A DNA stretch of 64,000 bases from Pirellulales bacterium (lineage in GTDB: Bacteria; Planctomycetota; Planctomycetia; Pirellulales; JADZDJ01). This document shows positions 988-50,767 of this stretch, one piece after another (position 1 is the first letter of the stretch; each line of letters starts with the position of its first letter). The stretch spans positions 280,958-344,957 of the forward strand of contig CAVRAW010000005.1 in the NCBI GenBank assembly GCA_963719205.1. Direction: 5' to 3'. The notes beneath the pieces are model-generated. The model made no database searches, was not told the DNA's origin, and saw only the letters and a program-made list of their open reading frames with translations. Position numbers and translations under genes: made by a program.

Positions 988-3310
988 TCACCACTTCCCC
1001 ACCACCAAATGAAAACTCGTTTCTTCTCGCGCCCCCGGCGTTCCCAACTCCACTCCCGGCGATGTTTCCATCACCGCCACATACGAGCGCCGCAGCAGCT
1101 TGTTGTCCTTAAGTTGCTCGGCCGTCTCGCGAAACGTTCGTTCCAGCACGCTCGTGTTTTGCGATGCGTCCGGCAGCGCGGTCCCGCCGGATTGCCTTGG
1201 GTATGCCGGGCCGTAACGGTACGGGTATTGATAGCGGTAGCGCCCCCCCAAACCGAAAAAGCTGCGGTCGCCCGAACTGTAGGCCATACCCGGCGGCACT
1301 TCCGGTTGACTGGCCGTTAGCAATGCGCTGATCGGTCCGAACGCTTCATGCTGCGATGCCGCACGCGTTAGCGCAATCGATGCGTCCGGCGCCAAGTCGG
1401 CTCCCACAAAGCAACCCCCATTTTCGTCAACCAGCACTAATTGCTTAATTCGCGCGCCAAGTTGATTGACAATCTGCGGCGACTGCCCGGCTTCGACTGC
1501 TTTAACTTCCAGCATCGCTTTCGTCTTGCCGATTCGCGACGTGACAAATTGCGTTGGCGTACGCGCCTGCAACCACCCGTCGGCTAATCGCTGCTCCAAC
1601 GGCGACGCCTGGTCCGAAGCATTGGACCGCCGCCACTCAACGATTCGCAACGAACGCTTCTCCGCGCTACTTTCCGGCTGCGATTCCAACGGCAGTACGG
1701 CAGTGCCTTCAGAAAATCTCAATCCATCCCCCGGCGCCAAACCCGCGTAGTACGAAAGCCGCGCCCAGCAGGCGGCCTCACCGCTGCGCTGATCGATCGT
1801 AGTCACGCTGCGCGCCCGCACTCGCACTCCCAATCCATCGGCCAACAAAGCAACGGCGATCAGCGCGACTGTCACTACCAGCGCGCCGGCCGGCACCGTG
1901 ATCACCATCAAATTCAATTTGCCCCATCGCCTGAGCACGAAGTAATTCACCGGCCCGATGACGACCATAAACAGCGTGATGAACACCTGAAATTGCGAGA
2001 CCGGCGCCAGCCCCACGCCCGGAATCAAAAAATTCCAAAAGTCCGAATTCTCGCGCCAGCGACAAGCCCCAGCGCTGATGCCACTGCCAACGCTCCGGCC
2101 CCAACGTGTTCAACAGCCAGGTCCAATGGAATCCGCTCCCATCAAAGGTATTGTCTCCGCGGATGGCAACCACCATCCCCATTCCAAGTGGCCGCGTGAC
2201 GAACGGCGCGTCCGCCACATCCGCCGCTTCTCGCGGCGCCGATTCCGGAGGCGTCTCGTCCAATTCCTCCTTGCGCAGCGACTTCACGGGCAGATTCCAA
2301 CCGCGCTTCGACGGATCGCGCTCCTCCTCGACAGCCGTTCCATCGCTTTCAGCCATCCCAATCGTCTGCTCCAGTTGCGAAATTCTGTCCCAATCTTTTC
2401 CGGCCCCGTACACGACCAAATTCCCGCCGTTGCGCACCCAATCGCGGATCGCATTCCACTGGCCGGGATACTGCGTCGCCAAGTCTCGCAATCTCCCTCG
2501 CGAGCACAACACCAGGTCCACGCCGCTGTAATCGATCCACTGCGTCGGCAACTCGTCGATGCTGATGGCATCCTTCTGAGCAAACCCCTGGCTCGCCGCC
2601 GAAGACTGCAGCGCGGTTTTGGAATCGCCTTTGACAAACAATTGCTCCGGCGCACTGTCGCCGATCTGAATTTGCACCTGCGACTTCCGATTGTCATCGC
2701 CCAACGCCAGCACGACCGGCAGCGATCGATCGCCAATCTCCGTCCCGCTCCAGCTCGTCCAACCCGCTTTAGGACCGATCGAAAGTTGGTCCACGTATTC
2801 CTTGTCCTCAAACACATCCAGCTCGAACGATCCCCACGCCCCTTCCTGCGGCACAGAAATTGTCATCTGCGCCGCGCTGCTGCCGGCCGGAATCTCCAAA
2901 ATCTGGCTCACCTCCACGCTCGCTTTCTGCGTGTAGCCCATGCGCGGACGAAAACGAATTGTGAGCACGCGGTCGGCAATCACTGGTCCGGCGATGGATC
3001 GCGCCGCCACCCGCACCGGCCGATAGCCGAACGAATCGACCCAGGTGGTATCGATCGTCAGTTCCAATCCGGTGGCGTTCACCTGATTGGGCCCCAGCAT
3101 GGGCAGCGTGATTGCCCCGCCCGACGCCGCCCACGCAGACTGCCCTAGAGCCAGCGAACTGAACAACACCAGCCATCCGGCGATCAAAGTGTTCGTCGAG
3201 GACGGCGGCGCCTTAGATCGCAATCGCCCCAGCAGCCGCGCTGAATAGCCACGCCACGCCAAACAGCAGCGCGTAAACAGCAAACGCGATAACAATTGCC
3301 AACAGTCCAA
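988..3310 (-). CDS. hypothetical signal-peptide/membrane protein (~770 aa), frame broken near 2050
   Basis: Same-strand ORFs 1778..3310 and 988..2028 overlap by 250 nt. They join cleanly if one base is restored near 2050 (..LSLAR|ENSDFWNFLIPGVGL..). Signal-like segment LIAGWLVLFSSLALGQSAWA; TM helices in the C-terminal half (FITLFMVVIGPVNYFVL, VITVPAGALVVTVALIAVALLA). No family recognised and the start is uncertain. Confidence 0.5.
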
Positions 3311-3425
3311 TCGAGACGCCGGCCGCCCATGCCCATCCGCGCCCCGCCGTCGAAGTTACAAACGCCACCACCGCCAGCGCCGCCATAATTCCCAGAATCA
3401 GCCGCAGCGAGAACTGCGGAATCAT
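3213..3425 (-). CDS. small hypothetical two-TM membrane protein (70 aa)
   Basis: ATG at 3425 gives MIPQFSLRLILGIMAALAVVAFV...GLLAIVIAFAVYALLFGVAWLF, with two clear hydrophobic helices. No homology recognised. Confidence 0.35.
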   Translation of the reverse strand: MIPQFSLRLILGIMAALAVVAFVTSTAGRGWAWAAGVSIGLLAIVIAFAVYALLFGVAWLFSAAAGAIAI

Positions 3426-3533
3426 CGTGCGTCGAACTTCTCCCATGCATTCGATTGTGCACTCGAGCCCGCAGCGCAAGCAAGGGCAGCCGTTTAGCCG
3501 CGACGCGCAGTCCGCGGAGCGGAGCGCGGCACT

Positions 3534-4220
3534 TCACCCGAACCGATATCGAATGATGCACCACAACGCCCGCACGCCATCGACCCACCCGATCTTTTTC
3601 CCCTCTTCGCGCGTCCGCGCTCGATATCGGATGGGCCGTTCCACAATCCGAATGCCCGGAATCTTCACCACTCGCGCCGAAAGTTCGATTTCCACCCCAA
3701 ATCGACTATCGATCAATTGCGGCGCGACCTTCTGAATGATCTCGCGGCGAAAAACCTTGTAACACGTCTCCACGTCGGTCAGTTTGACCCAATACACCCA
3801 GTTGAACACTCTCGTAATAATCCGGTTCGCCCAATACGTAGTATTCGAAATTTGCGAATCGGCCCCCTTCATGAAGCGGCTGCCGTACACCACGTCGGCC
3901 GCGCCGCTCGTGATCGGCTCCACCAGCGCCGAATAATCCCCCGGATCGTATTCCAAATCGGCATCCTGCACGATCACCAAGTCCCCCTTCACCGCCGCAA
4001 AGCCGGTCTTCAACGCATCCCCCTTGCCGCGGTTTTCCGGATGCCGCAACACGCGCACGTTCGCCTGGCACTCCAGATGCTTCAGCGACTCATAAGTGTT
4101 GTCGCTGCTGCCGTCGTCGACGATCACCAGTTCGTGCTCGATCGGCGTCTGCTGGATGACTTCCACCACCTGCCGCGCAGTCTCCGCTTCGTTATAAACG
4201 GGGATTACAATAGACAGCAT
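3534..4220 (-). CDS. family 2 glycosyltransferase (polyprenyl-phosphate sugar synthase-like)
   Basis: IVIPVYNE, VDDGSSDNT and the DxD-type QDADLEYDP motif. The length (228 aa) is typical of GT2 Dpm1/GtrB-like enzymes. Confidence 0.85.
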   Translation of the reverse strand: MLSIVIPVYNEAETARQVVEVIQQTPIEHELVIVDDGSSDNTYESLKHLECQANVRVLRHPENRGKGDALKTGFAAVKGDLVIVQDADLEYDPGDYSALVEPITSGAADVVYGSRFMKGADSQISNTTYWANRIITRVFNWVYWVKLTDVETCYKVFRREIIQKVAPQLIDSRFGVEIELSARVVKIPGIRIVERPIRYRARTREEGKKIGWVDGVRALWCIIRYRFG

Positions 4221-4483
4221 TCAGCCCGCCGTAATCATTCTCATGGGCGAAAAACGATGGACGTATACTATAATCGCCGCTCGTCCGCAGTGCAGCGTGA
4301 CCCTCCCCTTCTTTTTGCCTTTTTTTGATCGTCATCTTTTCAATAACAAAATCTTCCCTTCGGCCTTGCCGGTCGCCATCGATCGCATCCGATCACCCCG
4401 TTCATGCCAGGACCTAAAAATCCCTCCGTCCCCGCGCCAAATCGCTTCGGCCTGCTGTCGGGTGGCCCTCGTCGCCAAGTCAC

Positions 4484-6434
4484 TTGGTTCTGGGCGGCGT
4501 GGCATTGATCTTCTTCGCCATCTGCGTGGCTTACTATCCCGCTGTGCAAGGTGGCTTCATCTTAGACGATGACAAATTGGTGACCGGCAACAGCCTGGTC
4601 AAAGCACCCGATGGGCTCGTGCGATTTTGGTTTACCGCCGAAGGCGCGACTACTGGCCGATGACAAATTCCACGTTCTGGTTGGAATGGCGGCTCTGGGG
4701 AATGAATCCCACCGGTTATCACATCACCAACCTGCTCTTGCACTTCGTTTCAGCGCTCATGATATGGGCAATACTCCGAAAGCTATCCATTCCCGGTGCG
4801 TTTCTGGCGGCGCTGTTGTTCGCCGTGCATCCGGTGAACGTGGAATCAGTCGCTTGGATCGCGCAACGCAAGAATACCTTGGCGATGTTCTTCTTTCTGC
4901 TGTCGACCTGTTGGTATATCCAGGCGGATAGCTCGTTGTCGCGCACCGACGAAGTCATTCCCGTCGACAAGTCATCACCTCGTGCGACGCTTTTCGGAAG
5001 TGGCCGGTATTGGTTAAGTCTTATTGCGTTTGCCCTCGCGGCGCTCAGCAAAGGCTCAGTAGCAGTTTTGCCGCTAATACTCTGGGCAATCATTTGGTGG
5101 AAACGTGGCAGGATCGCGCCCAGCGATTTAGCACGCACCCTCCCGTTCTTTCTCATCGCGATTGTGCTGACGTTGGTGAATGTTTGGTTTCAGACTCACG
5201 GCGCCGACGTCGAATTTCGCGACGTCAATTTCGCGCAGCGATTGGCCGGCGCAGCGCCGTGGTGTGGTTTTATGCATCGAAGGCGATCCTCCCAATCCAT
5301 CTGCTTTCTGTATATCCACAGTGGGAAATTCATCCCGCTCAATGGCTTTGGTGGCTGCCTTTAGTTGCCGCCTTGGCGGCGACCATCGTGCTTTTACACC
5401 AACGCTTCAATCGATGGGGTCGGCCGCTGCTGTTTGCCTGGGGTTTCTTTTGTGTTGCTCTTCTCCCTGTGATGGGCTTCACCGACGTGGGCTTCATGCA
5501 GTATTCGCTCGTGGCCGATCATTATCAGCACATTGCCCTCATTGGAATTGTCGTGCTCGTGGCAGCAACCTGGTGTGTCTGGTACGCCCAAGCGCCAACA
5601 GCAATTCGCCCGGCGGCAACCACGATCACTATCTTCATCGTGCTTTGCCTGACGCTTCTAACCTGGAAACAATCTCGGCTCTATGCCAATCCTCGAACAT
5701 GGTACACAGCCGCTTTGAGTGAAAACCCAAACTGTTGGTTGATCCAAAATAACCTGGGCAGCGTGTTGCTGGAGGAACAACGTTTGCCTGAGGCTCTCGA
5801 GCATTTCCAACTAGCCCTGCAATTACGGCCCAACGATGCATTGACCCATAAAAATTTGGGCCTCGCCTTATCCATGCAAGGCAACTTCGAACAGGCAATC
5901 GCGCATTTCCAGCGGGCGCTTCAACTGAATCCCAAGTTCTTCAAAGCGCACGTTGATTTTGCCAATACACTGGTGCAGTTAGGCCGCCTCGCGGAAGCGA
6001 TCGATCAGTTTCAACAAGCCCTCGAGTCCAATCCCGATGCCGCTTTTGTCCACTACAATCTGGCCAACGCCCTGCGAAAAGCCGGTCGGCTCCAAGAAGC
6101 GATCTTTCACTACCAGGAGGCCCTCAAGCGAACGCCCGATTTTGCCGAAGCCCACAACAACCTCGGCTACCTGCTGGTGAATAACGGTCGGACTTTGGAG
6201 GGCATCGAACAGTTTCGGGAGGCTGTGCGATTGAAGCCCAACCACACCAATGCTTGGATCAATCTGGCGGATGCCTACGCACAGTTGCAGCGATTCCCCG
6301 AAGCCATCGATGCCGCTCAAACGGCCTTGAATCTAGCTCGATCCCAGCAGCAGACGGCGCTGGTCCAGAAAATCGAGGGCCTGTTGATCTCGTATCGGGC
6401 GAACCAATCGAATCCTCCCGGGCGCCTTGATTGA
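4484..6434 (+). pseudogene. TMTC/PMT-like GT-C membrane glycosyltransferase with C-terminal TPR array, disrupted by two frameshifts; paralog of 36650..39010
   Basis: Three frames align collinearly with the intact 818-aa paralog. Matches run GGFILDDDKLVTGNSLVKAP.. (frame from 4484), then [41 protein letters not shown] (4627..5364), then VVWFYASKAILPIHLLSVYPQW...ADHYQHIALIG plus about 9 TPRs (5010..6434). Shifts lie near 4645 and 5254. Confidence 0.75.
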
Positions 6435-6987: not shown

Positions 6988-7691
6988 ATTGCCGCGCGCC
7001 GCTCGTCGAATTCTGCCTTCTGCCTTCTGCTTTCTGCCTTTTGCACCATTCGCAACCGCCCCTCTTCCATCCGCACTTTCCCCAATCCAATCAACCGCAG
7101 TGCTTCCGGATACGCTTCGCACTCGGCCTCAAACACGCGCGCGGCCAAAGTGCCCGGCGTGTCATCATCGAGCACCGCCACCCTCCGCTGCAAGATAATT
7201 GGCCCATGATCGTACTGGTCATCCACTAAATGCACCGTGCAACCGCTGATTCGCGCCCCCGATTCTAGCACCGCTTCATGCACCCGCGCACCAAACAATC
7301 CCCGCCCGCAATACCCGGGCAACAGCGCCGGATGAATGTTCGTCACGCGGTTGCGAAAATCCGCCGGAATCAATACATGTTTGAGAAAGCCCGCCATCGC
7401 TACCAAATGCACACCCGCTTCGCGGCACCTCCCAAACACCGCCTCGCTATATTGTTCCGCGGAGACATCGTCGCTCGGCGCCTCCACAAGCGCCGCAATG
7501 CCAGCCTGCCGCGCAATTTCCAACCCCGGCGCCTTGGATGTGCTGGAAACCACCAATTCAATTCGTGCATCCAGCCGTCCCGCGCAAATGCATTGAATCA
7601 AATTCCCCAGTGTCCTCCCCTTGCCGGAAATTAAAACCGCCAATCGCAAGGGGGAAACAGCCTGTCCGAGTGTGAAGGACATGCCAGTCAT
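6981..7691 (-). CDS. purN: phosphoribosylglycinamide formyltransferase
   Basis: [27 protein letters not shown] and [17 protein letters not shown]. The start ATG overlaps the ileS stop (ATGA). The last ~20 codons are encoded by a TTCTGCC heptamer array. Confidence 0.9.
7011..7045. repeat. heptamer array TTCTGCC x4-5 at the convergent GNAT/purN 3' ends
   Basis: ttctgcc ttctgcc ttctgct ttctgcc ttttgca. It encodes the purN tail [11 protein letters not shown] on the minus strand. Confidence 0.75.
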
Positions 7692-10600
7692 TTCTTCACA
7701 ATCCGCAAATACAGTTGCGAAACGTCGTCGCCGACTTTGATTTCGCTCGCCTCGGCCCCCTCAATCGGCCCCGCTCTTAGAACAGTCGCCAGCGTTTCGC
7801 CGCGAATGTAATCGCCGAAATGGTCGATCGCGCGGCGAATCTCCGCCGACTCGCTTCCGATCCCCACCTCAATGCGGTCCGTATATTCACAATCCCGGTC
7901 TTTGCGGCAATTCTGAATCGCATGCACAATTTCCCGAGCCACTCCCTCGGTCACCAACTCCGGAGACAACTCCGTTGCCAAAACCACCACGCAGTCCTTG
8001 CCCTGCGCCGCCGCCCAGCCCGGCTTGGCCTGCAGGCGCACCTGCAAATCATTGCGGTCCAGCATTTCGCTGCTGCCGTCGTCCAACTTTAGCGAAACGC
8101 TCCCCGCTTTTTCCATTTCCGCAAGCAGCTTGCCGGCGTCCGACTTCGCCAATGCATTTTTCACCAGCGGCAACTTCTTGCCCAGCCGCGGTCCAAGCCG
8201 TTTCAAATCCGGCAGTACGGTATAAGTGATGTACTGCTCCGCCTTTTGCGTGAACTCCACATGTTTGACATTTAGCTCTTTACGCAACAGGTCGAAATGA
8301 TCCTCCAGCCATGCTTGTTGGCTTCGATCCGCCAGAATCACCTCCACCTTCCCCAGCGGCTGCCGCACCTTGAGCTTTGCCCCCATCCGTGCCGCCAGGC
8401 CCAGCGACGCAATCTCGCGCACCAGGTTCATCTGAATCGAAAGCTGCTCATCGATCGCTGCCCGATCCCCCGTGGGAAAATCGCACAGATGAACGCTTGT
8501 AGCGCTCATGGCTTCACCGCCTGCTGCTTGCTGCCTGCCGCCTGCCAGATTTTGCCACATCGCCTCCGCAATGAACGGCACAAACGGCGCAATGATTTTG
8601 CACGTCGTGATCAAACACTCGTACAGCGTCCAATAAGCGTCCAACTTGTCCGGATCGCGCTTGTCTTCCGCCCAAAACCGATCCCGGCTGCGCCGCACGT
8701 ACCAGTTCGAAAGCGCATCGACAAACTCGATGATCCGCTGCGCCGCCGCATAGTTGTCGTAAGCATCCATCCGCTCCACGACCGCCGCCGCCGTGCGATT
8801 CAATTCGCTCAAGATCCAGCGATCCAACTCCGCCCGCTCTTTGATTGGTCGAGCCGATTCGTCCCCCTGATTCTTGACTCCTGATCCCTGACTCCTGGGA
8901 TCAAATCCATCGATATTCGCGTAGATCACAAAAAAGCTGTACACATGCCACAGCCTTAACAAGAATTCCGGAATGCTGTCGCGGATCGCCCGCTCGCTAT
9001 AGCGGATCGTGGTCCACGGCGGCTGCGTGGCAAAAAAGTACCACCGCAACGCATCGGCGCCGTACTTGTCAAAAATCTCCGCAGGCTCGCGGTAATTCCG
9101 CTTGCTCTTCGCCATCTTCTGCCCGTCTTCGCCCAGCATCAGCCCCAGCACAATGCAATTGCGAAACGGCCGCGGAATCGGCTTGTCGAACACCAGCGTC
9201 GAAATCGCCAACTGGCTGTAAAACCACCCGCGCGTCTGATCGAGCGCCTCGCTAATGAAGTCGGCAGGAAACTGCTCATGAAATTTCCCGGCAGCGGCCG
9301 CGCGGCTGCCTTCCGTCGTTCCGCCTTCCGCCTTCCCCCTTCCGCCTTCCCCTTGATATCCCCACTGTGCAAACGGCATCGCCCCGCTGTCGTACCAACA
9401 GTCGATCACATCCGGCACGCGCCGCATCGTGCCGCCGCACTCGCACGAAAACAGGACAGCGTCGATATACGGCTTGTGAACTCTCAAATCGTCGATAAGC
9501 TTCGGATTTGCCTTCTTCGCCTTCTCCCACACTTCCGTTCCTGCAATTCCTGGCTTCCTAATTAATTCTTCGTAATTGCTGATTGCCGACTGCTGATTGC
9601 ACTTCTCGCATTGCCAGATGGGAAGCGGCGTGCCCCAAAATCGCTCCCGCGAAAGCGCCCAATCGACATTTGTCTCCAGAAAATTCCCGAACCGCCCTTC
9701 CTTGATATGGTCCGGCAGCCAGTTGATATGCCGATTATTCTCCAGCATCTGTTCCTTAAACTGGCTGGTTTTGATGAACCAGCTCCGTCGCGGATACTGA
9801 ATCAGCGGATCCTCCTCCGCCCGCCAGCAAAACGGATACTCGTGCCGATATTCTTCGCGATGAAACAACAACCCGCGCTGTTTCAAATCATGAATAATGT
9901 CCTTATCGCATTCCTTCACCCATCGCCCGCGGCAATACTCCGGCCCTTCATCTGTGAATTTGCCGTCCGGCGCTACGGAGCAAATCAGTTCCAAACCCGG
10001 GCCGTCTTCAAATCGACTGCGTTCATGGATCAGCACATCGAAATCGACTTCGCCAAACGCCGGCGCTTGATGCACTACCCCCGTGCCACTATCAATGGTG
10101 ACAAATCCGGCGCTGACCACGCGCCAAGCAATGTACTCCTTGCCATCGCCTTTTAATTGTCCCTGTGCGGACCCCAGCGAACGATAGTAATTGTCAAACG
10201 GCGGCACATACCGCAGCCCGATCAGTTTCTGTCCTTGAATCTTTTTCTCAACCTTGAATTCCCGCTTCACTTTCCCCGCGATCGCCTCCACTAGCGCGCT
10301 TGCAACAACTAACTTTTCCGTCGCGCCCGTCGCGTCGTTGTCGTCCACAACAACTGAATACTCCAACTCCGGATGCACCGCCGCAAACTGATTGCTCGGC
10401 AGCGTCCACGGCGTCGTCGTCCACACCAACAAACTCGCGCCGTCCAAACCCAATTCCTTTGTGCGCGCATCTGACACCAACGGAAACTTCACATACACGC
10501 TCGGGTCCGCCACCTCCCGGTAACCCAACCCCACCTCGCCGCTCGAAAGCGCCGTCCCCCCTGCGCCCACCACCAAACAATCTTGTGCCCCTGATACAAC

Positions 10601-11112
10601 AGCCCCCGATCGAACAACTGCTTCAAGCTCCACCACACGCTCTCCACGTAGCTCTGGTGGTAGGTGACGTACGCCTCGTCCAAATTCACCCAAAACCCGA
10701 TCCGCTCCGTCATCCGCCGCCACTCTTGCATGTACCGCCACACGCTCTGTTGGCACTTCTGAATAAACGGCTCCACGCCGTACTGCTCGATATCCTCCTT
10801 CGAGTGGATTCCCAGCTCTTTGCAGACCTCCACCTCGACCGGCAGACCGTGGGTGTCCCATCCCGCTTTGCGTTCGCACAACTGTCCGCGCATCGTCCGG
10901 TAACGGGGGAAAAGGTCCTTGATCGCCCGGGTCAAACAGTGCCCGGGATGGGGCATCCCGTTGGCCGTCGGCGGACCCTCGTAAAACACAAATCGCTCGG
11001 CGTTTTTCCGCCTTTCAAGCGACTTTGCATACACCTTTTGATCGCCCCAAAAACGGAGGATTCCCTCTTCGAGTTTTGGGAAGTTGACGTTGCTCTCGAC
11101 CGGCTCAAACAT
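7688..11112 (-). CDS. ileS: isoleucine--tRNA ligase, frame broken in a C6 homopolymer at 10556-10561
   Basis: N-terminal fragment 10489..11112 carries the HIGH-type motif [11 protein letters not shown]. Fragment 7688..10879 continues at ..[16 protein letters not shown].. and carries [18 protein letters not shown] and KMAKSKRN (KMSKS). The fragments join as [11 protein letters not shown]|TALSSGEV if the G/C run is 7 rather than 6. Confidence 0.95.
8864..8898. repeat. heptamer array (YTCCTGA x5) inside ileS
   Basis: cccctga ttcttga ctcctga tccctga ctcctgg. It translates on the minus strand as ..[13 protein letters not shown].. in a variable region of IleS. Confidence 0.7.
9308..9349. repeat. 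heptamer array (CGCCTTC x6) inside ileS
   Basis: gccttcc gtcgttc cgccttc cgccttc ccccttc cgccttc. It translates on the minus strand as ..[16 protein letters not shown].., inserted between PFAQWGY and [10 protein letters not shown]. Confidence 0.7.
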
Positions 11113-11487: not shown

Positions 11488-14249
11488 ATGTATCCAGTCA
11501 AAAAGCAACCTAGTATTAGCATCGCTGATCAAGGCACCCTCTTGAAGTTTCTACAGGCGCACGCAACTGCATTTCTGCGGCTAATTGTATGCCTGGCGGC
11601 GCCGGCAGCATCCGTCGCCCTCTGCACTCGTTCGGCGCTGGCTGATTACGAAGTCCCCAATCCCGCTTACGATGCGCCCGCCGGTTATTACAATTCGGCC
11701 ACCGGCACGGGAACCACGCTGCGCGGCAATCTGCATACCATCATTTCCAGCGGCTTCAACACCTACAACTATGGCGATGCCCGCACCATCCTGCCGATTC
11801 TCTGGGAAGATCCCAACGACTCCTCGAGAATGATCCTGGTTTACAACAACCAGTCGATCGTCAAACCCAACCCCAGTGGGACCAACCCGGCGGGCCTCCC
11901 GGGTTGGGACGGTGGCACCACTTGGAACCGCGAACACCTCTGGCCTCAGTCGCTGTTGGGGGTCTCGGTTTCAAACTCCTACAAAGGCCCGGCCAGCGAT
12001 CTCTTTGAACTGGCCCCCTGTAACCCCTCGGTCAACAGCTCCCGCGGGAATAATGACTACGGCACGACCGACGCCAGTGGCACGTACTTCAACCACGGCA
12101 CCAATCCGCATCCCTTCTACTTTTTCCCCGGCGATGCACAAAAGGGCGATGTCGCCCGCTCCATCTTTTACATGGCCACGCGCTACTACGGTGGCACCGG
12201 CATCCAGAACTTGAGCGTCCTCGACGGGTTTCCCAACGATACCATGGTCAACACTTACTCGATCGGCGATCGCCAGTCCCTGCTGCGATGGAATTACGCC
12301 GACGGCGTCGATAATTTTGAACGTCGAAAAAACGACCTGATCTACGACGACTATCAGCACAACCGCAATCCTTACATCGACCATCCCGAGTATGTTTGGG
12401 CCATCTTCGGCGATAGCGACAACAACTCACAAATTTCCGTCGCCACGCCCGCCGCCGACGGCTCGTCTTCCACCACGGCAAATCTCGGCAACGTGATCGT
12501 CGGCACTGCCTTCGGCACCGCCAATGTTACCGTCAGCAAGTCGGGTCACACGCCAACCACCTTCGACATTACAACTTCAGGAAACGCCGTCACCACGGGC
12601 AGTGGTTTGCTTGCAGGCACCGGGCACCCGTTCAATTACGACAGTCAATCGAAGGGCATGACCGTCGGCTGGACCGGTTCAACAGCCACTGCCGGTGCGA
12701 AATCCGGGACGATCACCATCGACAACACCGACCTGACTACCGCCGGTACCGGCCAAGGCTCCGCCGACGGCAACGACACGGTGACCGTCACCGGCAACGT
12801 CTACGATCACGCCAACGCCAGCTTTACCAGTCCCAGCGATACCAATTCCACGACGGTCGATGTGGGCATCTACAAAACCGGCACGGAACGCAATCCGCCG
12901 GCTTTGACATCTACAACCTCGTCAATACCGCCAGCTTCACGGCCGGGCTCCAATATGTCAGTCAGTCCGGCAGCGGCGACACCGCCCAGTTGTCTTCCAA
13001 CGTCGCCACCGCTTTCACCAGCGTTTTGGCGGCAGGTAGCAACATCGGGCTGAATGCGAACCTCAGCACCGCATCCATCGGCAGTTTCTCCGCCGCGTAT
13101 ACGCTCACGGTCGGCGACGATGCCAGCATTACCGGCCACACCAACCAGAACGTTACGCTCAATCTTGCCGGCCGCGTGCGCAACAACGGCACTATCTACT
13201 GGACAGCCGCCGGAGATTCCGCTTGGGATCTGAGTCATACGAAAACGAATTGGACCGACTTGTCTTTGAGCGACGTTTATCTCGAGGGCGATACTGTCGT
13301 TTTCAACGACGCTCAGAACCCCTCGGGCAGCCGCTCGGTGACGTTGAACAACTCCGTCACGCCGGCTTCGGTCTCCGTGAATCACAGCACCGGCAGCGAT
13401 TACACCATCAGCGGCTCAGGCGATATCGGCGGAAGCGGAGGGCTTACCAAAGCCGGTAGCGGTAAGTTCACATTGTCTACAAACAACACCTACAGCGGCG
13501 GCACCACGGTGAACGATGGCACGCTGGTGGTCGGTCACGTAAACGCCTTGGGCACCGGCGGCCTGGCGATTAACAGCACCGCCACCACGCAGTTGCAGGC
13601 CGGCTTGAGCGGGCCGGTGCAATTGCCCACCTTGTCGATCGCCGGCGGCTCCAGTCCGACCGCCACATTGGACATCACGGACAACAACATGATCGTCCAC
13701 AACGGCGATCTGTCCGCCTTAACCGCACAGGCCAAGGCCGGGCTCAGCGGCGGTTTCGACTGGAATGGCACTGGCCTCACCAGCACCACGGCACGTGACG
13801 ATTCCAATTTCGCCACCGCCGTGGGTGTGATCCAGAACGACGATGGCGGTGGCGGCGCCTTCTACAGCAGCTGGCCCGCCGGGGCCGATTCCGGTGGCGC
13901 CGTAAGCGTCAGCCAAACCGACGTCCTGATCAAGTACACCTACTACGGCGATGCCGACTTGGACGGCGTGGTGACCTCCGGTCAGGACTACGACTTGTGG
14001 CTGTTCGGCAAGAGCGGCGGCGGTACGGGCTGGGAATTCGGCGACTTCGACTACGACGGATCGATTACCGGCGCCAACGACTACGACCTCTGGCTGTACG
14101 GCAAGTCGGTCAGCGCCGGCAACCCGTTGGGCGGTGGCGGCGGCGTGCAGCCGGTCCCCGAGCCCAGCACGTTGCTCTTGGCCGCACTGGGTCTGGCCGG
14201 AGTGGCGGCCTTTGCCCGTCGGCGGCGGGCCGAAACGGCGCCGATTTAG
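11488..14249 (+). CDS. secreted endonuclease I-family nuclease fused to autotransporter-associated beta-strand (PATR) repeats, dockerin-like repeats and a PEP-CTERM anchor; frame broken near 12897
   Basis: Signal peptide. Endonuclease I motifs WNREHLWPQS, SDLFELAPCNPSVNSSRGNNDYG and GDVARSIFYMATRY. PATR-like GSGGLTKAGSGKFTLSTNNTYSGGTTVNDGTLVV. Two DxDxDG repeats (GDADLDGVVT.., GDFDYDGSIT..). C-terminal VPEPSTLLLAALGLAGVAAFARRRR. ORFs 11488..13053 and 12990..14249 join as ..GTERN(P)|AGFDIYNLVNTASF. Confidence 0.8.
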
Positions 14250-14464: not shown

Positions 14465-16138
14465 ATGCTATTTCATCTGGGACGATCGTTTGTTCGTGCG
14501 AACTACATATTTATTGCTTGGCGAAGCGCGCTGGCAATCTGCGCCGGTTTGGCGTTCGCCGCCTCAGCCCAGGCCACCGATTTCGTGGGCGCCGTCCAGC
14601 CGGCCGCGCTGGCTCAGCCCATGATCAATATCGCCCTGAGCACTTCCGATAGCGGCCCGCTGCTGACTTCAACGACCATTGATTTCGATCTGGCCACCGG
14701 TCAAATCGTTGAGAAGACCATTTTCAATCTGCAAGCGTATTTAGACACCGGCGCCAGCGGCATCCTGCTAAGCACTACCACAGCCTCCGACTTCGGCGTA
14801 CCTCTGCAAACCGTCGGCGCCACCCAGGTCACCTATCAGGACGTGGGCGCGGTTGGCTCGGCGACGTTCAACGTCTCGCAGCCGATTTTTCTTCGGCTAT
14901 CGCCCACGAACCCCGCGATCGACCCGGAAAATCCCGCCAACTATTCGCAACTTCCCGGTTCGCTTCGCGCACAAGTAGGTCCCGTATTCGACGCTCAGGG
15001 AGACGATTTGCAAAGGCTCATCAACGAACTGCTCGGAGGCGACATCAATGTTGTCGGCACTCCCGCCATGGCCGGCACTCCCGCCATCCCCGGCAAAGTC
15101 GTCGTGGTTGATCTCCGTGCGACGAACACGCTGGCTAAAAACTCGCCGTCGTTGGATCCAGTGCTCAACAGCATCATCACTGGTTTATTATCCGGGGATC
15201 CGACAATTACCGCAGCGGCCGTGACCCAACTCAACCAACTGGAAGATGGTCTTACTTTGCGTTCCTATCTCTACGCACCCGGCACGCCGTTCCACAATGC
15301 GACGCCGGACACCGATCCGGGAATTCCCGCCACGAATCGCCACATCAAGTTAACTTTGGCGTCGTTCGATCGATTCACTTCCGTCAGTCCCACCGGCGCT
15401 CCCTCTCCGGACTTGTCGGCAAATCCATTCATCGGACCCAATCCAATTTCCGCGATCGACGGCTCGGTCCTTCCCGGCGACGCTCCTGGCGTGAAGATCG
15501 CTTACGGCGGCCTTGCCACGGAAGGAAGCTTTCTGCTCGACACCGGCGCCGCGGCCTCGATGATTTCCACAAATCTAGCCGCCCAATTGCACGTCCGATA
15601 CCACACCAACGCCGACGGCACCCGCTATCTCGAAACCTTCGATCCCGCCAATCCCGGATCAATCGGAACGCAGATCGCCGATCAATTCCAGCTCACCATC
15701 GGCGGCATCGGTAACGACGGCTCGCAGGCTCTGTCCGGTTTCTATCTCGACTCATTGCTGTTGTGCACGCTCGAAGGCGATGCCGGTGATGACGACGACC
15801 CCAACCACCTGCGATTTTTCCAAGCCCCCGTGTTGGTCAACGACATCACGCTGACCGACAGCTTCGGAGCAAGCTTCACTCTCGACGGTATTCTGGGTAT
15901 GAATTTTCTTACCGCCAGTTCGACCGTCAACGGCAGTGATTTTGACTTGTCGTTTGGCGAACTATTCTCCGGCCAATTCGATTGGATGACTGTCGATTTC
16001 AACAGCGACAATCCCGTCCTCGGCCTCCAGCTAAGCGTCGAGGCCGTTCCCGAGCCTTCCTCCGGTCTCTTGGCCGTCTTTGGATTCCTTGCCGGCGCAG
16101 CGATCTTGCGAAAGAAGCGAAAGGCCTTCCGCGGTTGA
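14465..16138 (+). CDS. PEP-CTERM-anchored secreted protein with two retropepsin-like aspartic protease lobes
   Basis: Signal peptide (AICAGLAFAASAQA). Two D-T-G-A motifs, YLDTGASGILL (Asp codon at 14744) and FLLDTGAAASMI (15539). ILGMNFL near the end of lobe 2. C-terminal VPEPSSGLLAVFGFLAGAAILRKKRK. Confidence 0.7.
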   Translation: MLFHLGRSFVRANYIFIAWRSALAICAGLAFAASAQATDFVGAVQPAALAQPMINIALSTSDSGPLLTSTTIDFDLATGQIVEKTIFNLQAYLDTGASGILLSTTTASDFGVPLQTVGATQVTYQDVGAVGSATFNVSQPIFLRLSPTNPAIDPENPANYSQLPGSLRAQVGPVFDAQGDDLQRLINELLGGDINVVGTPAMAGTPAIPGKVVVVDLRATNTLAKNSPSLDPVLNSIITGLLSGDPTITAAAVTQLNQLEDGLTLRSYLYAPGTPFHNATPDTDPGIPATNRHIKLTLASFDRFTSVSPTGAPSPDLSANPFIGPNPISAIDGSVLPGDAPGVKIAYGGLATEGSFLLDTGAAASMISTNLAAQLHVRYHTNADGTRYLETFDPANPGSIGTQIADQFQLTIGGIGNDGSQALSGFYLDSLLLCTLEGDAGDDDDPNHLRFFQAPVLVNDITLTDSFGASFTLDGILGMNFLTASSTVNGSDFDLSFGELFSGQFDWMTVDFNSDNPVLGLQLSVEAVPEPSSGLLAVFGFLAGAAILRKKRKAFRG

Positions 16139-17656: not shown

Positions 17657-18121
17657 TTATTTTTCGTCTTCGAAACCCTCGTCTTCATCTGTCTCGACCT
17701 CTCCATTGCCCGACGATTCGTCGTCATCCTCAAGCTCTTCCTCAAAATCGTCGTCGAAATCATCGTCGAAGTCATCCTCATCCCATTCGTCTTCCTCAAT
17801 CACCGGTACATCTTCGATGGGACCGTCTTCGTCCAAATCGTCATCGTCGCTTTCCGAATCTTCTTTTTCCTCTTCCTTTTCTTCTTCCGCCTCGTCCTTT
17901 TCAGCGCGAATCGCTCTGCCGACATCGTACGGAAATAGGCCGAAAAACACGCGCCGCCTCAGGCCGCAAAACTCGACCTCGTCATGCGCCGCATCCAACC
18001 ACGAGGGGTAACATTTGACCGCCAGCATGCCGATCGCTCCTAAAAGCCACTCTTGGGGATGAATATCTCGGTGATCAATCAACGTGCGGCAGACGGTGCT
18101 GGCTTGGTTTTCATCGGCCAA
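17657..18121 (-). CDS. hypothetical protein with an extremely acidic C-terminal tail
   Basis: 154-aa ORF whose last ~80 residues are almost only D/E (EKDEAEEEKEEEKEDSESDDDDLDEDG...DDFDDDFDDDFEEELEDDDE). The antisense poly-Ser ORFs are shadows of it. Confidence 0.5.
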   Translation of the reverse strand: MADENQASTVCRTLIDHRDIHPQEWLLGAIGMLAVKCYPSWLDAAHDEVEFCGLRRRVFFGLFPYDVGRAIRAEKDEAEEEKEEEKEDSESDDDDLDEDGPIEDVPVIEEDEWDEDDFDDDFDDDFEEELEDDDESSGNGEVETDEDEGFEDEK

Positions 18122-18210: not shown

Positions 18211-19405
18211 CTACGTGTGGTAATCCGCATTGAGCCGCACGTATTCTGCCGTAAGATCGCTCGTCCAAAATCGCACCGCCCCCTTCCCTTCGCGAAAGCT
18301 CAATACCACCTTCGTCTCGCGGCTTTCCCTGATGCTGGCCGAGACCTTCGCGGCATCGAACTCCAGCGGTGCCCCGGCCCGATAAAGCGCGAATCCATTG
18401 ATCGTCAGATCCACCCCGGCCGGATCAAACGGCACTCCGGCGTAACCGGCCGCCGACACAATGCGCCCCCAATTCGGATCCGCCCCCGCCACCGCTGTTT
18501 TCACCAGCGGACTATCCGCCACGGTCTTGGCGATCTGTCGGGCCGCCGCGATCGTCGCACATCCCTGCACGTCCAGACAAATCAAATGGGTCGCCCCTTC
18601 CCCATCTGCCGGTATCGATTTCGCCAGTTCGGCGCACACTTCGTGCAACGTTTCTTGAAATTTTTCCAGATCGGCGCCGCTTCAAATTCGCGCCCCCGGC
18701 CGCGCCGTTGGCCAATAGCAAGACTGTGTCATTGGTACTCATGTGGCCGTCGACGCTAATGCAATTGAACGTATCGTCGACCACCGCCGACAGAGCCTTC
18801 TGCAGATTCTCGGCGGCAATCGCAGCATCCGTCAGCACCAATCCCAGCATTGTGCCCATGTTTGGCGCGATCATCGCCGCCCCTTTGGCCATTCCTGTGA
18901 TTTGGATCGCCCGCCCGCCGATCTTCGCGCTCCGCCCAGCCACCTTATGGATGGTATCAGTCGTCATCATGCCGCGCGCCGCGGCTACCAGCGAATCTTC
19001 GCCGGACCCTAGTTGCGCCGCACATTCGTGAATGCCCCTCGCGATGCTCTCCATCGGCAAAAACTCGCCGATGATCCCGGTCGATAGAACCAGCGCCTGT
19101 TCCGGTTTCGCGCCGCACGTTGCCGCGGCCAACTTGGCCATCTCCGCAGCGTCGCGCAGCCCACGCTCGCCGGTGCATGCATTGGCATTTCCCGAATTGA
19201 TTGCCACCGCCTGAAATCCCTCGCCAGGCGTGAGCGCCCGGTCGTACGCCACCGGAGCGGCAAACACCAGGTTCTTCGTGTACACCCCCGCGGCCGAAGC
19301 AGGCCGTTCCGACACCACCAGCGCCACATCGTGCCGCGAAGGATTGCGCTTGATCCCCGCATACACGCCCGCCGCTCGATATCCCTGGGGCACTTTCATC
19401 GACAT
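18211..19405 (-). CDS. argJ: bifunctional glutamate N-acetyltransferase/amino-acid acetyltransferase, frame broken near 18682
   Basis: NSGNANACTG, MMTTDT and the autoprocessing-site context NMGTMLGLVLTDA. The C-terminal fragment 18211..18648 carries ADPNWGRIV. The fragments join as ..LLANGAAGGANL|SGADLEKFQETLHEV. Confidence 0.9.
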
Positions 19406-19410
19406 GAATC

Positions 19411-20472
<1,062 letters not shown>

Positions 20473-28807: not shown

Positions 28808-31552
<2,745 letters not shown>

Positions 31553-31577
31553 CCTTTGGTCAGTTCATGGAGGATTC

Positions 31578-32238
31578 ATGACGGTAAAAACCCAATCGGA
31601 AGCAGCATTCGAGCAAGCTTGTCGCTCCTTCGGTATCAAGATCGAACCAATCCCACGTGCCGTCAACCAATCGCCCGACTGCAAAATCTACCTCTCGGGC
31701 AACTTGGTTTATGCTGAAGTCAAACAATTTGACCTGAACGAAGCCGAAAAACGCGCGTTAGAGGAAATGCGATCCAAGGGCTGTAGCGCATACTGGCCGA
31801 GAGAAGATTGGCGAATCCGATCGAAAATCCATGAAGCGAACTCACAATTAAAATCCCTGACCGAGAGCAAATATCCCGGGGTGGTGATCCTCTTTGTCGG
31901 TTCGTCTATTGGAAGTTTCGACTCTGAGGACATCCACGCGGCGATGTATGGAAGCGAATCCTGCAGTTTTGCGGTCCCAAGAAACGGTGCCGGGGAAACT
32001 GTGCCTCTCGGAAGCGTCGCTTGCTCCAAATGGCACATGTAGAGCTCAAAGGCATACGACAACCAGTGCCGTTGTTTCGCTTTGGCGACTAGACACATCG
32101 CAATTCCGCATGAATTTCTATCACAACACTTTCGCGAAGAACCCGGTCACACCCGACTGGTTGCGGTGTGATGGAATTCAACACTTCACATCAAAACGGC
32201 CCGACGAAAACAAGCTCCCTAATTGGGTGGCGATTTGA
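31578..32238 (+). CDS. hypothetical PD-(D/E)xK nuclease-like protein, frame probably broken near 32025
   Basis: GGAGGA lies 3 nt upstream of the ATG at 31578. SEAAFEQACRSFG..SPDCKIYLSGNLVYAEVKQ fits the E...PD...(D/E)xK restriction-endonuclease-fold pattern. The ORF stops at 32042, but the overlapping frame continues plausibly (..TSAVVSLWRLDTSQFRMNFYHNTFAKNPVTPDWL..) to 32238. GC is visibly lower than in the flanks. Confidence 0.5.
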
Positions 32239-32266
32239 TAGGACGATTATCTAAAAAAGGGAATTT

Positions 32267-33154
32267 ATGCAGGACGTAGAAAAATACGCGCCGCCGACAG
32301 AGACTCTGGGCGATCAAGTGCATGCAGTCGCACGTGCCGCACTAGGCGCAATACCGTATGCGGGAAACGCGGCTTGTGAGCTGCTCCAAAAGATCGTCGC
32401 GCCGCCGATCAAAATACGAATTAACGACTGGATGGAAAACATAGCCGACGGTCTCAAGAGACTTGAAAACGAGCAACGGTGTAAAATCGAAGACCTTGGC
32501 AAAAACGATGCGTTTACGGACACGATTATGTATGCAACGCAGGCGGCCGTGCGCACATCCAAAGACGGAAAGCGAAAGGCCCTCCAAAATGCAGTGTTAA
32601 ACTCTGCCCTGCCAAATCCACCGGACGAGACCTCGAGACAAATGTTCTTGTCATTGGTAGACACCTTCTCCGAATTGCACTTGCGTTTCCTCGCAATTTT
32701 TCAGGACCCGCCAAGCTGGCTTGCGGCAAACAACAAACCCATTCCTACTAGAGAATCAAGGACGCTGTGGGAGCTTGTGTCATACATATTTCCAGAATTG
32801 AAGGATCAGCGAGCAATAGCCGAACAAGTCTGCAAGGAATTGCATAACCGTGGATTATTGATCGCTGCGTCTTTGAACGAGGAAGTTTCTCGCTACCCTT
32901 ACTTTCCAACTAAACCAATCGAGCAGCAACCCGGATACTACTTCGCAGAAACCCCTGGAATTGGAAATGTCGTTTATTCCGGAAGTCATTCCGCTTTAAG
33001 ACCGTGGACAACCGAACTGGGGAACCAGTTTTTAGCGTTTATATCATCGCCAACCGAACAGCAGCCAGTCACCCTTGCTTCTCGCGCCGGGTGCCATACC
33101 CACGCTCTAGCGTGGGCATGTGACGTCGTCCTGGCTTCCTGCTTTCCTAATTGA
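32267..33154 (+). CDS. hypothetical protein (295 aa), no family recognised
   Basis: Clean ORF in the low-GC islet, 28 nt after the previous gene. Helical N-terminal half (..KRKALQNAVLNSALPNPPDETSRQMFLSLVDTFSELHLRFL..). The last ~12 codons are encoded by a palindromic repeat element. Confidence 0.55.
   Translation: MQDVEKYAPPTETLGDQVHAVARAALGAIPYAGNAACELLQKIVAPPIKIRINDWMENIADGLKRLENEQRCKIEDLGKNDAFTDTIMYATQAAVRTSKDGKRKALQNAVLNSALPNPPDETSRQMFLSLVDTFSELHLRFLAIFQDPPSWLAANNKPIPTRESRTLWELVSYIFPELKDQRAIAEQVCKELHNRGLLIAASLNEEVSRYPYFPTKPIEQQPGYYFAETPGIGNVVYSGSHSALRPWTTELGNQFLAFISSPTEQQPVTLASRAGCHTHALAWACDVVLASCFPN
33094..33119. repeat. palindromic repeat element family B, copy 2
   Basis: CATACCCACGC-TCTA-GCGTGGGCATG, an 11-bp stem with one mismatch, forming the 3' end of ORF 32267..33154. 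Confidence 0.75.
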
Positions 33155-35714: not shown

Positions 35715-36066
35715 GGGGATCCTCCTCTGTTCACAAAGTTCCGTTGACCGCTGGCCACTTTCTGTGGGTTCCGAGTGCTCTGTTCACCCGGCGAGTGGCG
35801 CTGGATCGGCCTTGCCTCTGGCACATTCCCTATAGCAAACCGCACGTCACTTGTGGAAGTTGCCGCGGAATTTTTTCCGAGAAAAGATTCCGTGCATGTG
35901 CAATGACCAGCGGCGTGGTCAAGATAGATAAGCCGCGAGATTTGCAGATAAAGAATATCGCAGAAAAGCTAGTTCTTCCGAGGCATGCCAACGGCATGTG
36001 GAAATGCGCCGCGAGATATTTGATCGCCCGCGCCCTGAACCGCAGCCTGCCAGGCTGAGCGCCAAA

Positions 36067-36261
36067 TTAACGCTTGCGCTCGTCCAAGCCAAGAGTGGAG
36101 ATGATCGTTTCCGCGCCAGGCGTCATGCGGCGAAGCTTATCGGCGATGTTCGCCTTTTCCGAAACGGTGGCTTTCTTCAGCTTCCGCTGAAAGACGACCA
36201 GCTTCTTGCGCCGCCGGCGGCGCCGCTTGATTTCCTGCTTCCGATCGCTGATGCCACCCAC
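36067..36261 (-). CDS. small highly basic hypothetical protein (64 aa)
   Basis: GTG at 36261 gives MGGISDRKQEIKRRRRRRKKLVVFQRKLKKATVSEKANIADKLRRMTPGAETIISTLGLDERKR. Lys/Arg-rich, like ribosome- or nucleic-acid-associated small proteins. Confidence 0.5.
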   Translation of the reverse strand: MGGISDRKQEIKRRRRRRKKLVVFQRKLKKATVSEKANIADKLRRMTPGAETIISTLGLDERKR

Positions 36262-36333
36262 GTGTAGGCTCCTGGGGTCAAAGTGATCTGCTTTTGTAAC
36301 ACGACCGCCATGAAACGTCAACGCATAACGAGG

Positions 36334-36424
36334 AATGACCGATGACCAGTTGCCAATGACCCGCGACAGATTGACCGTTGCCGCCTGTTGGTCACTGGGT
36401 TTTGTTCATTGGTCATTCTGATTA
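36334..36424. repeat. inverted pair of heptamer arrays (AATGACC-type)
   Basis: Left arm: aatgacc gatgacc agttgcc aatgacc. Right arm: ggtcact gggtttt gttcatt ggtcatt, which is the reverse complement of aatgacc aatgaac aaaaccc agtgacc. Confidence 0.65.
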
Positions 36425-36479
36425 GCCCCGAACATTTGACACTTTCCGCTGCTCAAAGCTACAGTTGCGCTATCTTGCC

Positions 36480-49634: not shown

Positions 49635-49635
49635 A

Positions 49636-50751: not shown

Positions 50752-50767
50752 TGAAGGGGCCATCCTG

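Follow-up and report, generated by a model that had tools for sequence, protein, structure and literature searches.

A gene for a predicted aspartic protease lies in a 64,000-nucleotide stretch of a Pirellulales bacterium (contig CAVRAW010000005.1; the whole stretch that was analysed is called the window). The encoded protein is probably a clan-AA aspartic endopeptidase that is exported and whose active site is assembled from two lobes of one polypeptide, each giving one half, instead of from two copies of a single-lobe chain. A Shine-Dalgarno-like GGGAG is located 7 nt upstream of the ATG, and the open reading frame (ORF) is collinear from end to end with orthologs at 92–94% identity. Scans of the window for promoters and terminators gave background-level results. 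The features of the gene, with the evidence for each in parentheses (pLDDT, predicted local distance difference test), are as follows.

14465..16138, plus strand: protease coding sequence, 557 residues plus stop, complete with ATG start (ORF list)
14465..14575, plus strand: Sec-type signal peptide, residues 1–37 (hydrophobicity, AlphaFold helix, conserved A37)
14576..15112, plus strand: N-terminal catalytic lobe, residues ~38–216 (β-rich AlphaFold region, pLDDT mostly >90)
14744..14761, plus strand: N-lobe active-site loop, D94-T-G-A-S-G (conservation in a 69-sequence alignment; TIGR02281)
14831..14878, plus strand: N-lobe flap-like β-hairpin, residues 123–138 (model strands 123–128 and 131–138)
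15050..15064, plus strand: N-lobe G-loop, V196-V-G198-T-P200, the hydrophobic-hydrophobic-Gly element of the psi-loop (conserved columns)
15056..15091, plus strand: imperfect 18-nt tandem duplication, GGCACTCCCGCCATGGCC / GGCACTCCCGCCATCCCC (window DNA compared with orthologs)
15116..15253, plus strand: variable helical insertion, residues 218–263 (helices 218–226, 231–243 and 246–263; pLDDT 86–92)
15254..15454, plus strand: conserved inter-lobe linker or platform, residues 264–330 (invariant and near-invariant columns)
15485..15913, plus strand: C-terminal catalytic lobe, residues ~341–483 (PF13650 and PF13975 match at residues 348–383)
15539..15559, plus strand: C-lobe active-site loop, D359-T-G-A-A-A-S (conservation)
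15686..15763, plus strand: C-lobe flap-like hairpin, residues 408–433 (strands 408–413 and 420–433; tip I412-G-G-I-G416-(ND)-G419)
15890..15910, plus strand: C-lobe G-loop and next helix, I476-L-G478-M-N480-F-L (conserved columns)
15917..16033, plus strand: four-stranded C-terminal β region, residues 485–523 (strands 485–489, 496–501, 505–511 and 518–523)
16043..16135, plus strand: PEP-CTERM sorting signal, composed of VPEP, a hydrophobic helix and RKKRK (TIGR02595, PF07589, motif scan)

Two catalytic-type motifs are conserved across the family

The original prediction described two D-T-G-A motifs about 265 residues apart and a late ILGMNFL motif, and all three are present. The first DTGA occupies residues 94–97, with the Asp94 codon GAC at nt 14744 (context LQAYLDTGASGILL). 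The second occupies residues 359–362, with the Asp359 codon GAC at nt 15539 (context SFLLDTGAAASMIS), which gives a spacing of exactly 265 residues between the two Asp. The ILGMNFL motif is found at residues 476–482 (nt 15890–15910). Given the composition of the protease itself, about 0.04 DTGA is expected by chance per protein; two by chance are therefore unlikely (a Poisson probability of about 7e-4). Each of the 120 homologs listed has two D[TS]G motifs, spaced 210–265 residues apart, and of the 249 family proteins collected, 245 contain two or more.

Conservation was examined in an alignment of 69 sequences that are 41–50% identical to the window protein. In the N-lobe loop, D94, T95, G96, S98 and G99 are present in 69/69 sequences and A97 in 63/69. 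In the C-lobe loop, D359, G361 and S365 are present in 69/69 and T360 in 68/69, with L357 and S368 also invariant. Each DTG is followed by a conserved β-hairpin. The N-lobe hairpin has the motif [FY]124-x-D126-V-G128-V-x-G131...F135-x-V-S138, of which D126, G131 and S138 are invariant and G128 is retained in 68/69. The C-lobe hairpin has the family consensus IGGIGG, with F408, G414 and G425 invariant, G416 in 68/69 and G419 in 67/69. The G-loops follow the same pattern: G198 (69/69) and P200 are invariant in the N-lobe (family consensus D-V-[FV]-G-M-P), and D474 and G475 are invariant in the C-lobe (consensus L-D474-G475-[IV]-[FL]-G478-M-N480-[FL]-L), where G478 is found in 61/69 (Ala in the other 8), M479 in 67/69 and N480 in 68/69. 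The D-loop and the hydrophobic-hydrophobic-Gly G-loop together define the clan-AA psi-loop (PMC2761423, PMC11313796), and their conservation in both halves suggests that each lobe carries this defining pair. Three features of clan AA are present: a D-[TS]-G in each lobe, a G-loop in each lobe and an acid-protease fold.

Several elements outside the catalytic motifs are also conserved. The linker contains Y270, PGIP (285–288), L296, F301, F304, T305, P315, N320-P-F, G324 and P327 as conserved residues, and its strands (265–270, 292–299, 306–308 and 320–323) are modelled at pLDDT 96–98. W507 and D511 form near-invariant columns in the C-terminal β region. The linker and this β region probably build a platform between the lobes. 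The helical insertion is variable, with an alignment occupancy of 1–38 of 69 across residues 224–261; the close orthologs carry it as well. The 18-nt duplication adds six residues (TPAIPG) directly after the N-lobe G-loop. It is specific to the window, being present neither in P0122 and P0121, which are 92–94% identical, nor in any other member, and it may be either real or an assembly artefact.

The predicted structure contains two retropepsin-like lobes

The window protein was modelled with template-free AlphaFold2, with the minimal member P0112 (460 residues, 38% identity) as a replicate. The model of the window protein has a mean pLDDT of 91.6 and a predicted template modelling score (pTM) of 0.89; the corresponding values for P0112 are 93.0 and 0.90. 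Foldseek searches against the PDB at E ≤ 1e-3 returned 29 matches for the window model and 261 for the P0112 model. The top 50 listed for both models are aspartic proteases only, including the aspartic-protease-like Rv0977 domain. The fold matches of the window model comprise Candida Sap1 (rank 1), 9iy9 from Bacteroides fragilis, tethered (covalent) HIV-1 protease dimers, plasmepsins, pepsin, cathepsin D and BACE; renin is also among the significant matches. For P0112, the top of the PDB ranking is taken by HIV-1 protease dimers in tethered or single-chain form (E 5e-8 to 4e-7, TM-score 0.59–0.65), followed by 9iy9 and then by pepsin-family enzymes at TM-scores of 0.37–0.47. A search of viral folds in BFVD yielded weak single-lobe matches at most.

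The N-lobe aligns collinearly with the first monomer of the tethered HIV-1 protease and the C-lobe with the second. For the window model, these alignments cover 430–441 collinear columns and reach TM-scores of 0.58–0.61, normalised to the whole 198–203-residue dimer. Since the superposition of one lobe can reach a TM-score of 0.5 at most, the observed values indicate that both lobes superpose under one transformation, which suggests that they adopt the relative arrangement of the two subunits of HIV protease. With TM-scores above 0.5 to the covalent dimers, Asp94 and Asp359 would be apposed. The conserved hairpins at residues 123–138 and 408–433 are flap-like by position, and the placement of the N-lobe hairpin after its DTG points to a putative flap role. 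The two lobes proposed in the original prediction are thus recovered in two confident template-free models, for which aspartic proteases are the Foldseek matches and tethered HIV-1 dimers are the best or near-best ones.

The sequence affinity is retropepsin-type

The window protein matches PF13650 with 40.2 bits (cut-off 24.3) and PF13975 with 36.2 bits (cut-off 28.2), and the significant stretch, residues 348–383, surrounds the DTG of the C-lobe. At the N-lobe DTG, a weak match to TIGR02281 (clan_AA_DTGA) was observed at residues 88–121, together with a second PF13650 stretch at E ≤ 1 only. Two retropepsin-type regions are therefore detected by hidden Markov models (HMMs), above cut-off on the C-lobe and more weakly on the N-lobe. 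All 69 members of the family match PF13650 and PF13975, and 22 of them match the retroviral RVP model. No match to the pepsin-type models PF00026 or TAXi was found in the window protein at E ≤ 1, nor in the 69 members at E ≤ 0.01. When the full-length protein or one of its lobes was searched against PDB sequences, the matches were at chance level only, and the family profile gave sub-threshold matches in the DTG region only (9iy9, Ddi1 and XMRV protease).

The C-lobe resembles HIV-1 protease in the order of its motifs, LLDTGA, IGGIG and I-[IL]-G-x-N-[LF]-L. The following correspondences are to be read as leads. PGVKIAYGG..LLDTGA of the C-lobe corresponds to PLVTIKIGG..LLDTGA (residues 9–28 of HIV-1 protease), IGGIG to residues 47–51 (hhalign places the tip on residues 47–56), and ILGMNFL to IIGRNLL (residues 84–90). 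The flap-tip consensus IGGIGG is presumably the same string as the flap tip of HIV-1 protease.

Export and surface-sorting signals

The N-terminus comprises a basic n-region (R7, R11 and R20), a hydrophobic core at about residues 21–33 and an ASAQA sequence, after A35 or A37 of which the signal peptide is likely to be cleaved. The maximum 12-residue Kyte-Doolittle value is 2.3 at residue 22, AlphaFold places a helix at residues 6–33, and A37 is nearly invariant. A hydrophobicity-based call detects a signal-peptide-like N-terminus in 176 of 245 family members.

The C-terminal tail VPEPSSGLLAVFGFLAGAAILRKKRKAFRG consists of VPEP, then SSGLLAVFGFLAGAAIL, then RKKRK, at the extreme C-terminus. It passes the NCBIfam model TIGR02595 with 17.9 bits (cut-off 16). 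The PEP-CTERM anchor that had been proposed is therefore upheld, with a score just under the threshold of Pfam. Cargo of the PEP-CTERM system is characterised by a tripartite C-terminal signal (PEP motif, hydrophobic helix and basic cluster) combined with an N-terminal signal peptide, and by an exosortase (PMC1569441). Among the 69 members, the C-terminal module is PEP-CTERM (PF07589) in 43 and dockerin repeats in 15, and autotransporter-type β-strand repeats occur in longer members. A simple motif test finds a PEP-CTERM-like tail in 169 of 245 family proteins. A constant catalytic core joined to interchangeable display modules would argue for an extracellular enzyme.

Family size and distribution

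Homologs were collected with a word-indexed search of 5.8 billion proteins and an exhaustive profile search of 1.84 billion cluster representatives. The word-indexed search recovered at least 381 homologs, one of which (P0001, in public collections) is identical to the window protein; the next full-length homolog is 48% identical. Functional names are absent from the homolog labels, which read hypothetical, PEP-CTERM sorting domain-containing, autotransporter-associated beta strand or dockerin. The profile search recovered 1,141 cluster representatives at E ≤ 1e-3, of which 767 remain at E ≤ 1e-10 and 384 at E ≤ 1e-30; among the 150 best, almost every one is matched across both lobes in a single stretch. 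The family is covered by no NCBIfam model, no full-length Pfam model and no sequence-related solved structure. Literature searches on two-lobed bacterial retropepsins, PF13650 architectures and Planctomycetota aspartic proteases found no description of it.

In contigs from one genome per species, 143 stretches encode a relative, and all locus-level counts given here cover the best 80 of these 143. Planctomycetota metagenome-assembled genomes (MAGs) account for 74 of the 80 loci (Pirellulales, Planctomycetia, Tepidisphaerales, Phycisphaerales and Thermoguttaceae), and some MAGs contain 2–3 paralogs. The ortholog in L002, a complete Pirellulales chromosome, is 93% identical. As a survey of the architecture, these searches give at least two D[TS]G motifs in 245/249 proteins, about 1,100 clusters, and an occurrence in at least 143 species genomes, nearly all of them Planctomycetota. 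The six other loci (L007, L012, L039, L050, L064 and L076) are in MAGs labelled Nitrospiraceae, Bacillota, Gammaproteobacteria (one of these a complete 5.7-Mb chromosome, OZ257136.1) or Marinobacterium; either the gene was transferred horizontally out of Planctomycetota, or these MAGs are mislabelled or mis-binned.

Comparison with known aspartic proteases

The engineered tethered HIV-1 protease dimers (1hvc, 1g6l, 1lv1, 4ep2 and 3ka2) share with the window protein the arrangement of two retropepsin lobes in one chain. These dimers are man-made fusions of two identical 99-residue monomers through a short linker. In contrast, the window protein has natural, non-identical lobes that are about twice as large and share about 25 alignable columns, together with a conserved, structured linker of about 65 residues, a variable helical insert, a C-terminal β region and a sorting signal. 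Its sequence identity to the tethered dimers is 11–14%.

Characterised single-lobe retropepsin-like proteases of bacteria include Rickettsia APRc, Pseudomonas RloA/RimB and Legionella Lpg0085. This class (PF13650/PF13975, TIGR02281) comprises the sole families that the window protein matches by sequence, and the DTGA is followed by a short helix as in these enzymes. The original prediction took dimers of single lobes to be the bacterial norm, in agreement with the literature (PMC11957051); for RloA, function as a C2 homodimer has been demonstrated (PMC11957051), and some of these enzymes, such as RloA (PMC11957051) and APRc (PMC4140852), are secreted or surface-located. Their chains are roughly 120–230 residues long, whereas the window protein combines two diverged lobes in one chain with a predicted asymmetric cleft and departs from the one-lobe-per-chain homodimer of the PF13650/PF13975 families. 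It probably works like the single-lobe enzymes, although it is no ordinary member of them.

Pepsin A1 enzymes are likewise bilobed single chains with one catalytic Asp in each lobe, and they are significant fold matches. The window protein differs from them in that its second lobe carries a putative retropepsin-type flap and in that the A1 HMM is unmatched in the 69 members. The bacterial pepsin homologs (shewasins; PMC2761423, PMC4814920) have no signal peptides and are predicted to be intracellular (PMC2761423), unlike the present family with its signal peptide and surface-sorting modules.

Two exported bacterial proteins provide further comparisons. The protease domain of PecA/PE_PGRS16 (4ehc; PMC6819658) is a bacterial, surface-associated, bilobed protease fused to a lineage-specific export or anchoring module, and 4ehc is a fold match of the window model (E 1.1e-3). 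PecA is exported through type VII secretion with a PE domain, whereas the window protein would use Sec and PEP-CTERM; PecA also belongs to a different phylum and shows no detectable sequence relationship. The exported Bacteroides fragilis protein 9iy9 (putative endopeptidase / exported protein, released in 2025) is the second- and sixth-ranked fold match (E 2e-5 and 1e-7, TM-score 0.38–0.40 of 420 residues), with alignments that span both query lobes. It is also the best PDB sequence match to the family profile, at a non-significant level (FIFDTGAGTS, E 0.089). In contrast to the family, 9iy9 has one DTG-region sequence match, and it is 12–14% identical, 420 residues long and from a different phylum. 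No paper on 9iy9 was found in the literature search. It may be a comparable bilobed bacterial protein.

Proposed mechanism

The Sec signal peptide would carry the protein across the cytoplasmic membrane, where the two lobes would pack as an intramolecular pseudo-dimer with the geometry of the HIV-1 protease homodimer. The N-lobe contributes D94-T-G-A, the hairpin at residues 123–138 and VVG198; the C-lobe contributes D359-T-G-A, the hairpin with the IGGIG tip at residues 412–416 and ILG478-MN. In this arrangement, Asp94 and Asp359 would face each other, braced by a fireman's grip of Thr95 and Thr360, and would activate a water molecule, while the two non-identical hairpins would close over an extended peptide substrate. 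The cleft would be asymmetric because the lobes differ. The PEP-CTERM tail would then deliver the protein to an exosortase, which would attach it to the cell surface or the exopolysaccharide layer or release it there. Ala also follows the DTG in renin and HIV protease. Because Ala follows the DTG in both lobes, activity at near-neutral pH is predicted; this residue has been linked to a neutral pH optimum (PMC2761423). The role of the enzyme is most likely extracellular protein breakdown for nutrient scavenging.

Alternative explanations

Several observations weigh against the bilobed, exported endopeptidase. The apposition of Asp94 and Asp359 is a prediction from superposition TM-scores. The HMM matches span about 35 residues around each DTG (profile positions 6–38 of 90), and the N-lobe match, taken alone, is weak (TIGR02281, 20.4 bits compared with a cut-off of 57.95). 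Between the N-lobe and C-lobe profiles, hhalign aligns 25 columns, located around the DTGA and the next helix (probability 22%), which is too short a stretch to separate an internal duplication from a fusion of two different genes; the two lobes of pepsin are likewise very different from each other (PMC2761423). The conserved segments 264–330 and 485–523 have no retropepsin counterpart. The PEP-CTERM tail scores 18.5 bits against PF07589, below the gathering cut-off of 20.7, and a Pfam scan of the ~42 ORFs of the 64-kb window detected no exosortase (EpsH/Xrt). Genes for PEP-CTERM cargo are usually dispersed around the genome, and the exosortase-free window therefore says little. No conserved neighbour gene hints at substrates, the maximum recurrence being 10/80 loci.

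A bilobed single chain is also what a highly diverged pepsin (A1) lineage would provide, with lobes derived from the ancient duplication-fusion of pepsin, perhaps through horizontal transfer, and with a retropepsin likeness that reflects features shared across clan AA. Sap1 (rank 1 for the window model), plasmepsins, pepsin, cathepsin D, renin and BACE are significant Foldseek matches, and the spacing from the Asp to the G-loop Gly (104 residues in the N-lobe and 119 in the C-lobe) is nearer to pepsin (~90) than to HIV protease (~61). The conserved inter-lobe region could equal the central sheet of pepsin, and [FY]124 in the N-lobe hairpin loosely recalls pepsin Tyr75. However, PF00026 and TAXi are unmatched at the thresholds given above, and retropepsin-type models match all members, 22 of them including retroviral RVP. 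The flap of pepsin is located on the N-lobe only, whereas here the C-lobe carries a retropepsin-type IGGIGG tip on a putative flap of its own; the single flap of pepsin has been described (PMC8889585). The TM-scores to covalent HIV dimers (0.60–0.65) also exceed those to pepsins (0.37–0.47), in a comparison that is imperfect because the target lengths differ. We regard an A1 descent as improbable. Still less credence is given to a catalytically dead, protease-shaped binder or inhibitor on the surface, like EDGP, TAXI-I or Bla g 2, which we consider highly improbable. The inactive pepsin-fold protein EDGP (3vlb, 3vla) is among the fold matches; in opposition to this, both DTGs are invariant or nearly so, and both G-loops and both hairpins are conserved at 41–50% identity, the pattern that would be expected from selection on catalysis. 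Known inactive homologs have degenerate catalytic motifs.

The same enzyme could instead act as a surface maturase or sheddase that trims surface-anchored proteins, such as PEP-CTERM cargo like the nuclease encoded next to it and perhaps also itself, in a PecA-like and non-nutritional role. Retropepsins are typically enzymes of limited proteolysis, and the protease adjoins another PEP-CTERM protein in the lineage of the window. Surface-associated and bilobed, PecA processes both its own chain and further surface proteins (PMC6819658), and the fold matches include Rv0977 (4ehc), a structural relative of PecA. Adjacency to that PEP-CTERM protein, a nuclease, is nevertheless confined to 2/80 loci, no neighbour recurs above 10/80, and the combination of 2–3 paralogs per genome with varying display modules (dockerin, β-strand repeats) is more typical of scavenging hydrolases. 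A maturase role is rather unlikely, yet it is the leading alternative to nutrient scavenging. The second DTGA might also be a chance motif, or the ORF an assembly artefact, given that frameshifts split IleRS, ArgJ and the nuclease in the window and that the protease carries a window-specific 18-nt duplication. This has a negligible probability and is ruled out by the family-wide conservation of both motifs and by the collinearity of the ORF with the 92–94% orthologs and hundreds of homologs, in addition to the chance expectation of ~0.04 DTGA.

Evolutionary origin and significance

An origin independent of pepsin is plausible, given that the sequence matches retropepsin-type models but not those of A1. 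The duplication-and-fusion origin of pepsin was reportedly proposed in 1978. The present family could be an independent natural re-run of that process, in which a single-lobe, dimerising retropepsin-type gene became a covalent pseudo-dimer and the lobes then diverged, with the retropepsin hallmarks (DTGA, a flap per lobe and the GxN helix) kept in both halves; we advance this tentatively, at somewhat less than an even chance. If it is true, the family would represent a living intermediate between the homodimeric and bilobed states, and bilobed aspartic proteases would have arisen more than once.

Neither the fold nor the chemistry is unusual. What makes the family relevant to the duplication-fusion origin of pepsins is that it is large, natural and made up of single-chain retropepsin-type pseudo-dimers. 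Two questions are long-standing (PMC2761423): whether the ancestor of bilobed pepsins was single-lobed and dimerising, and whether retropepsins represent the ancestral or a derived form. A family with two retropepsin-like lobes offers a concrete test case of pepsin origin and symmetry loss. The closest solved analogs are the engineered covalent HIV dimers, of which this family would be evolution's version, with asymmetric lobes, two different flaps and an added platform. Bacterial aspartic proteases are regarded as rare and mostly cytoplasmic (PMC6819658). About 1,100 clusters of predicted exported, surface-sorted enzymes, common in soil and freshwater Planctomycetota, would lengthen the short list of exported bacterial aspartic proteases, and they represent one of few PEP-CTERM cargo types with a predictable enzymatic function. 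The neutral-pH activity predicted from DTGA in both lobes could have practical uses.

Genomic neighbourhood and assembly quality

The protease gene is surrounded by housekeeping genes, in the order IleRS, nuclease, protease, purine nucleoside phosphorylase, TPR protein, ArgJ, ArgC, CoaBC, Gmk, YicC, SecG, TIM, PheA, DnaK and ClpB. The following features of the window lie outside the protease.

11488..14249, plus strand: surface nuclease, a neighbour and not part of the protease (PF04231 4.8e-31; PF12951; PF07589 33 bits)
7688..10879 and 10489..11112, minus strand: split IleRS (overlapping frames)
18211..18648 and 18512..19441, minus strand: split ArgJ (overlapping frames)
56556-59541, plus strand: split ketosynthase ORFs (overlapping frames)

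The nuclease comprises an Endonuclease_1 domain, an autotransporter-type β-strand repeat, a dockerin-like GDxDxDG stretch and a strong PEP-CTERM signal, and its tail and that of the protease are the only two PEP-CTERM tails in the window. In the window it is split into overlapping frames (11488..13053 and 12990..14249) by a frameshift near 12990–13053; in the ortholog locus L002 it is intact as a single 905-residue ORF (3068..5785). The original prediction that the nuclease adjoins the protease and shares its anchor type holds for this locus, but the nuclease is no conserved partner: the two genes are adjacent in only 2 of 80 loci (L002 and L003), and a conserved nuclease-protease module was rejected. 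In L058, the protease is located directly between IleRS and the phosphorylase. No flanking gene recurs in more than 10/80 loci, and the protease is a stand-alone gene.

The split genes are most likely assembly indel errors and not pseudogenes, because IleRS is essential and similar breaks occur in the long-read MAG loci L002 and L003. The close ortholog P0121 (676 residues) has an apparent frameshift, its translation continuing through the PEP-CTERM tail in a different frame, and the protease copy at L003:6001-7567 contains 10 stop codons in a straight translation. These frameshifts point to assembly errors in long-read MAGs.

Other features of the window

Rfam and tRNA scans of the window returned no matches. 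A change of sign in the GC skew (negative to the left, positive to the right) was observed at ~35000–37000, with a cumulative minimum near 36–37 kb, and gene orientation near 35000–37000 shifts from mostly minus to mostly plus. A replication origin near 36 kb is unsupported, with 5 DnaA boxes compared with 6.25 expected and no dnaA gene. A low-GC island at 31512–33154 (plus strand; GC 0.48–0.51 compared with ~0.59 for the window) contains two ORFs of 176 and 295 residues; located just after ClpB, it may have been acquired horizontally. At 17657–18121 (minus strand), a 154-residue ORF has an extremely acidic C-terminal half with E/D runs; L002, the closest relative, is the one locus in which it is conserved. 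A polyketide- or fatty-acid-synthase-like cluster at 48943–63154 (plus strand) encodes a luciferase-like domain fused to an O-methyltransferase, an FAD oxidoreductase, an AMP-binding enzyme, a reductase (NAD_binding_4), the fragmented ketosynthase ORFs and a 926-residue protein with three phosphopantetheine-binding (ACP) domains.

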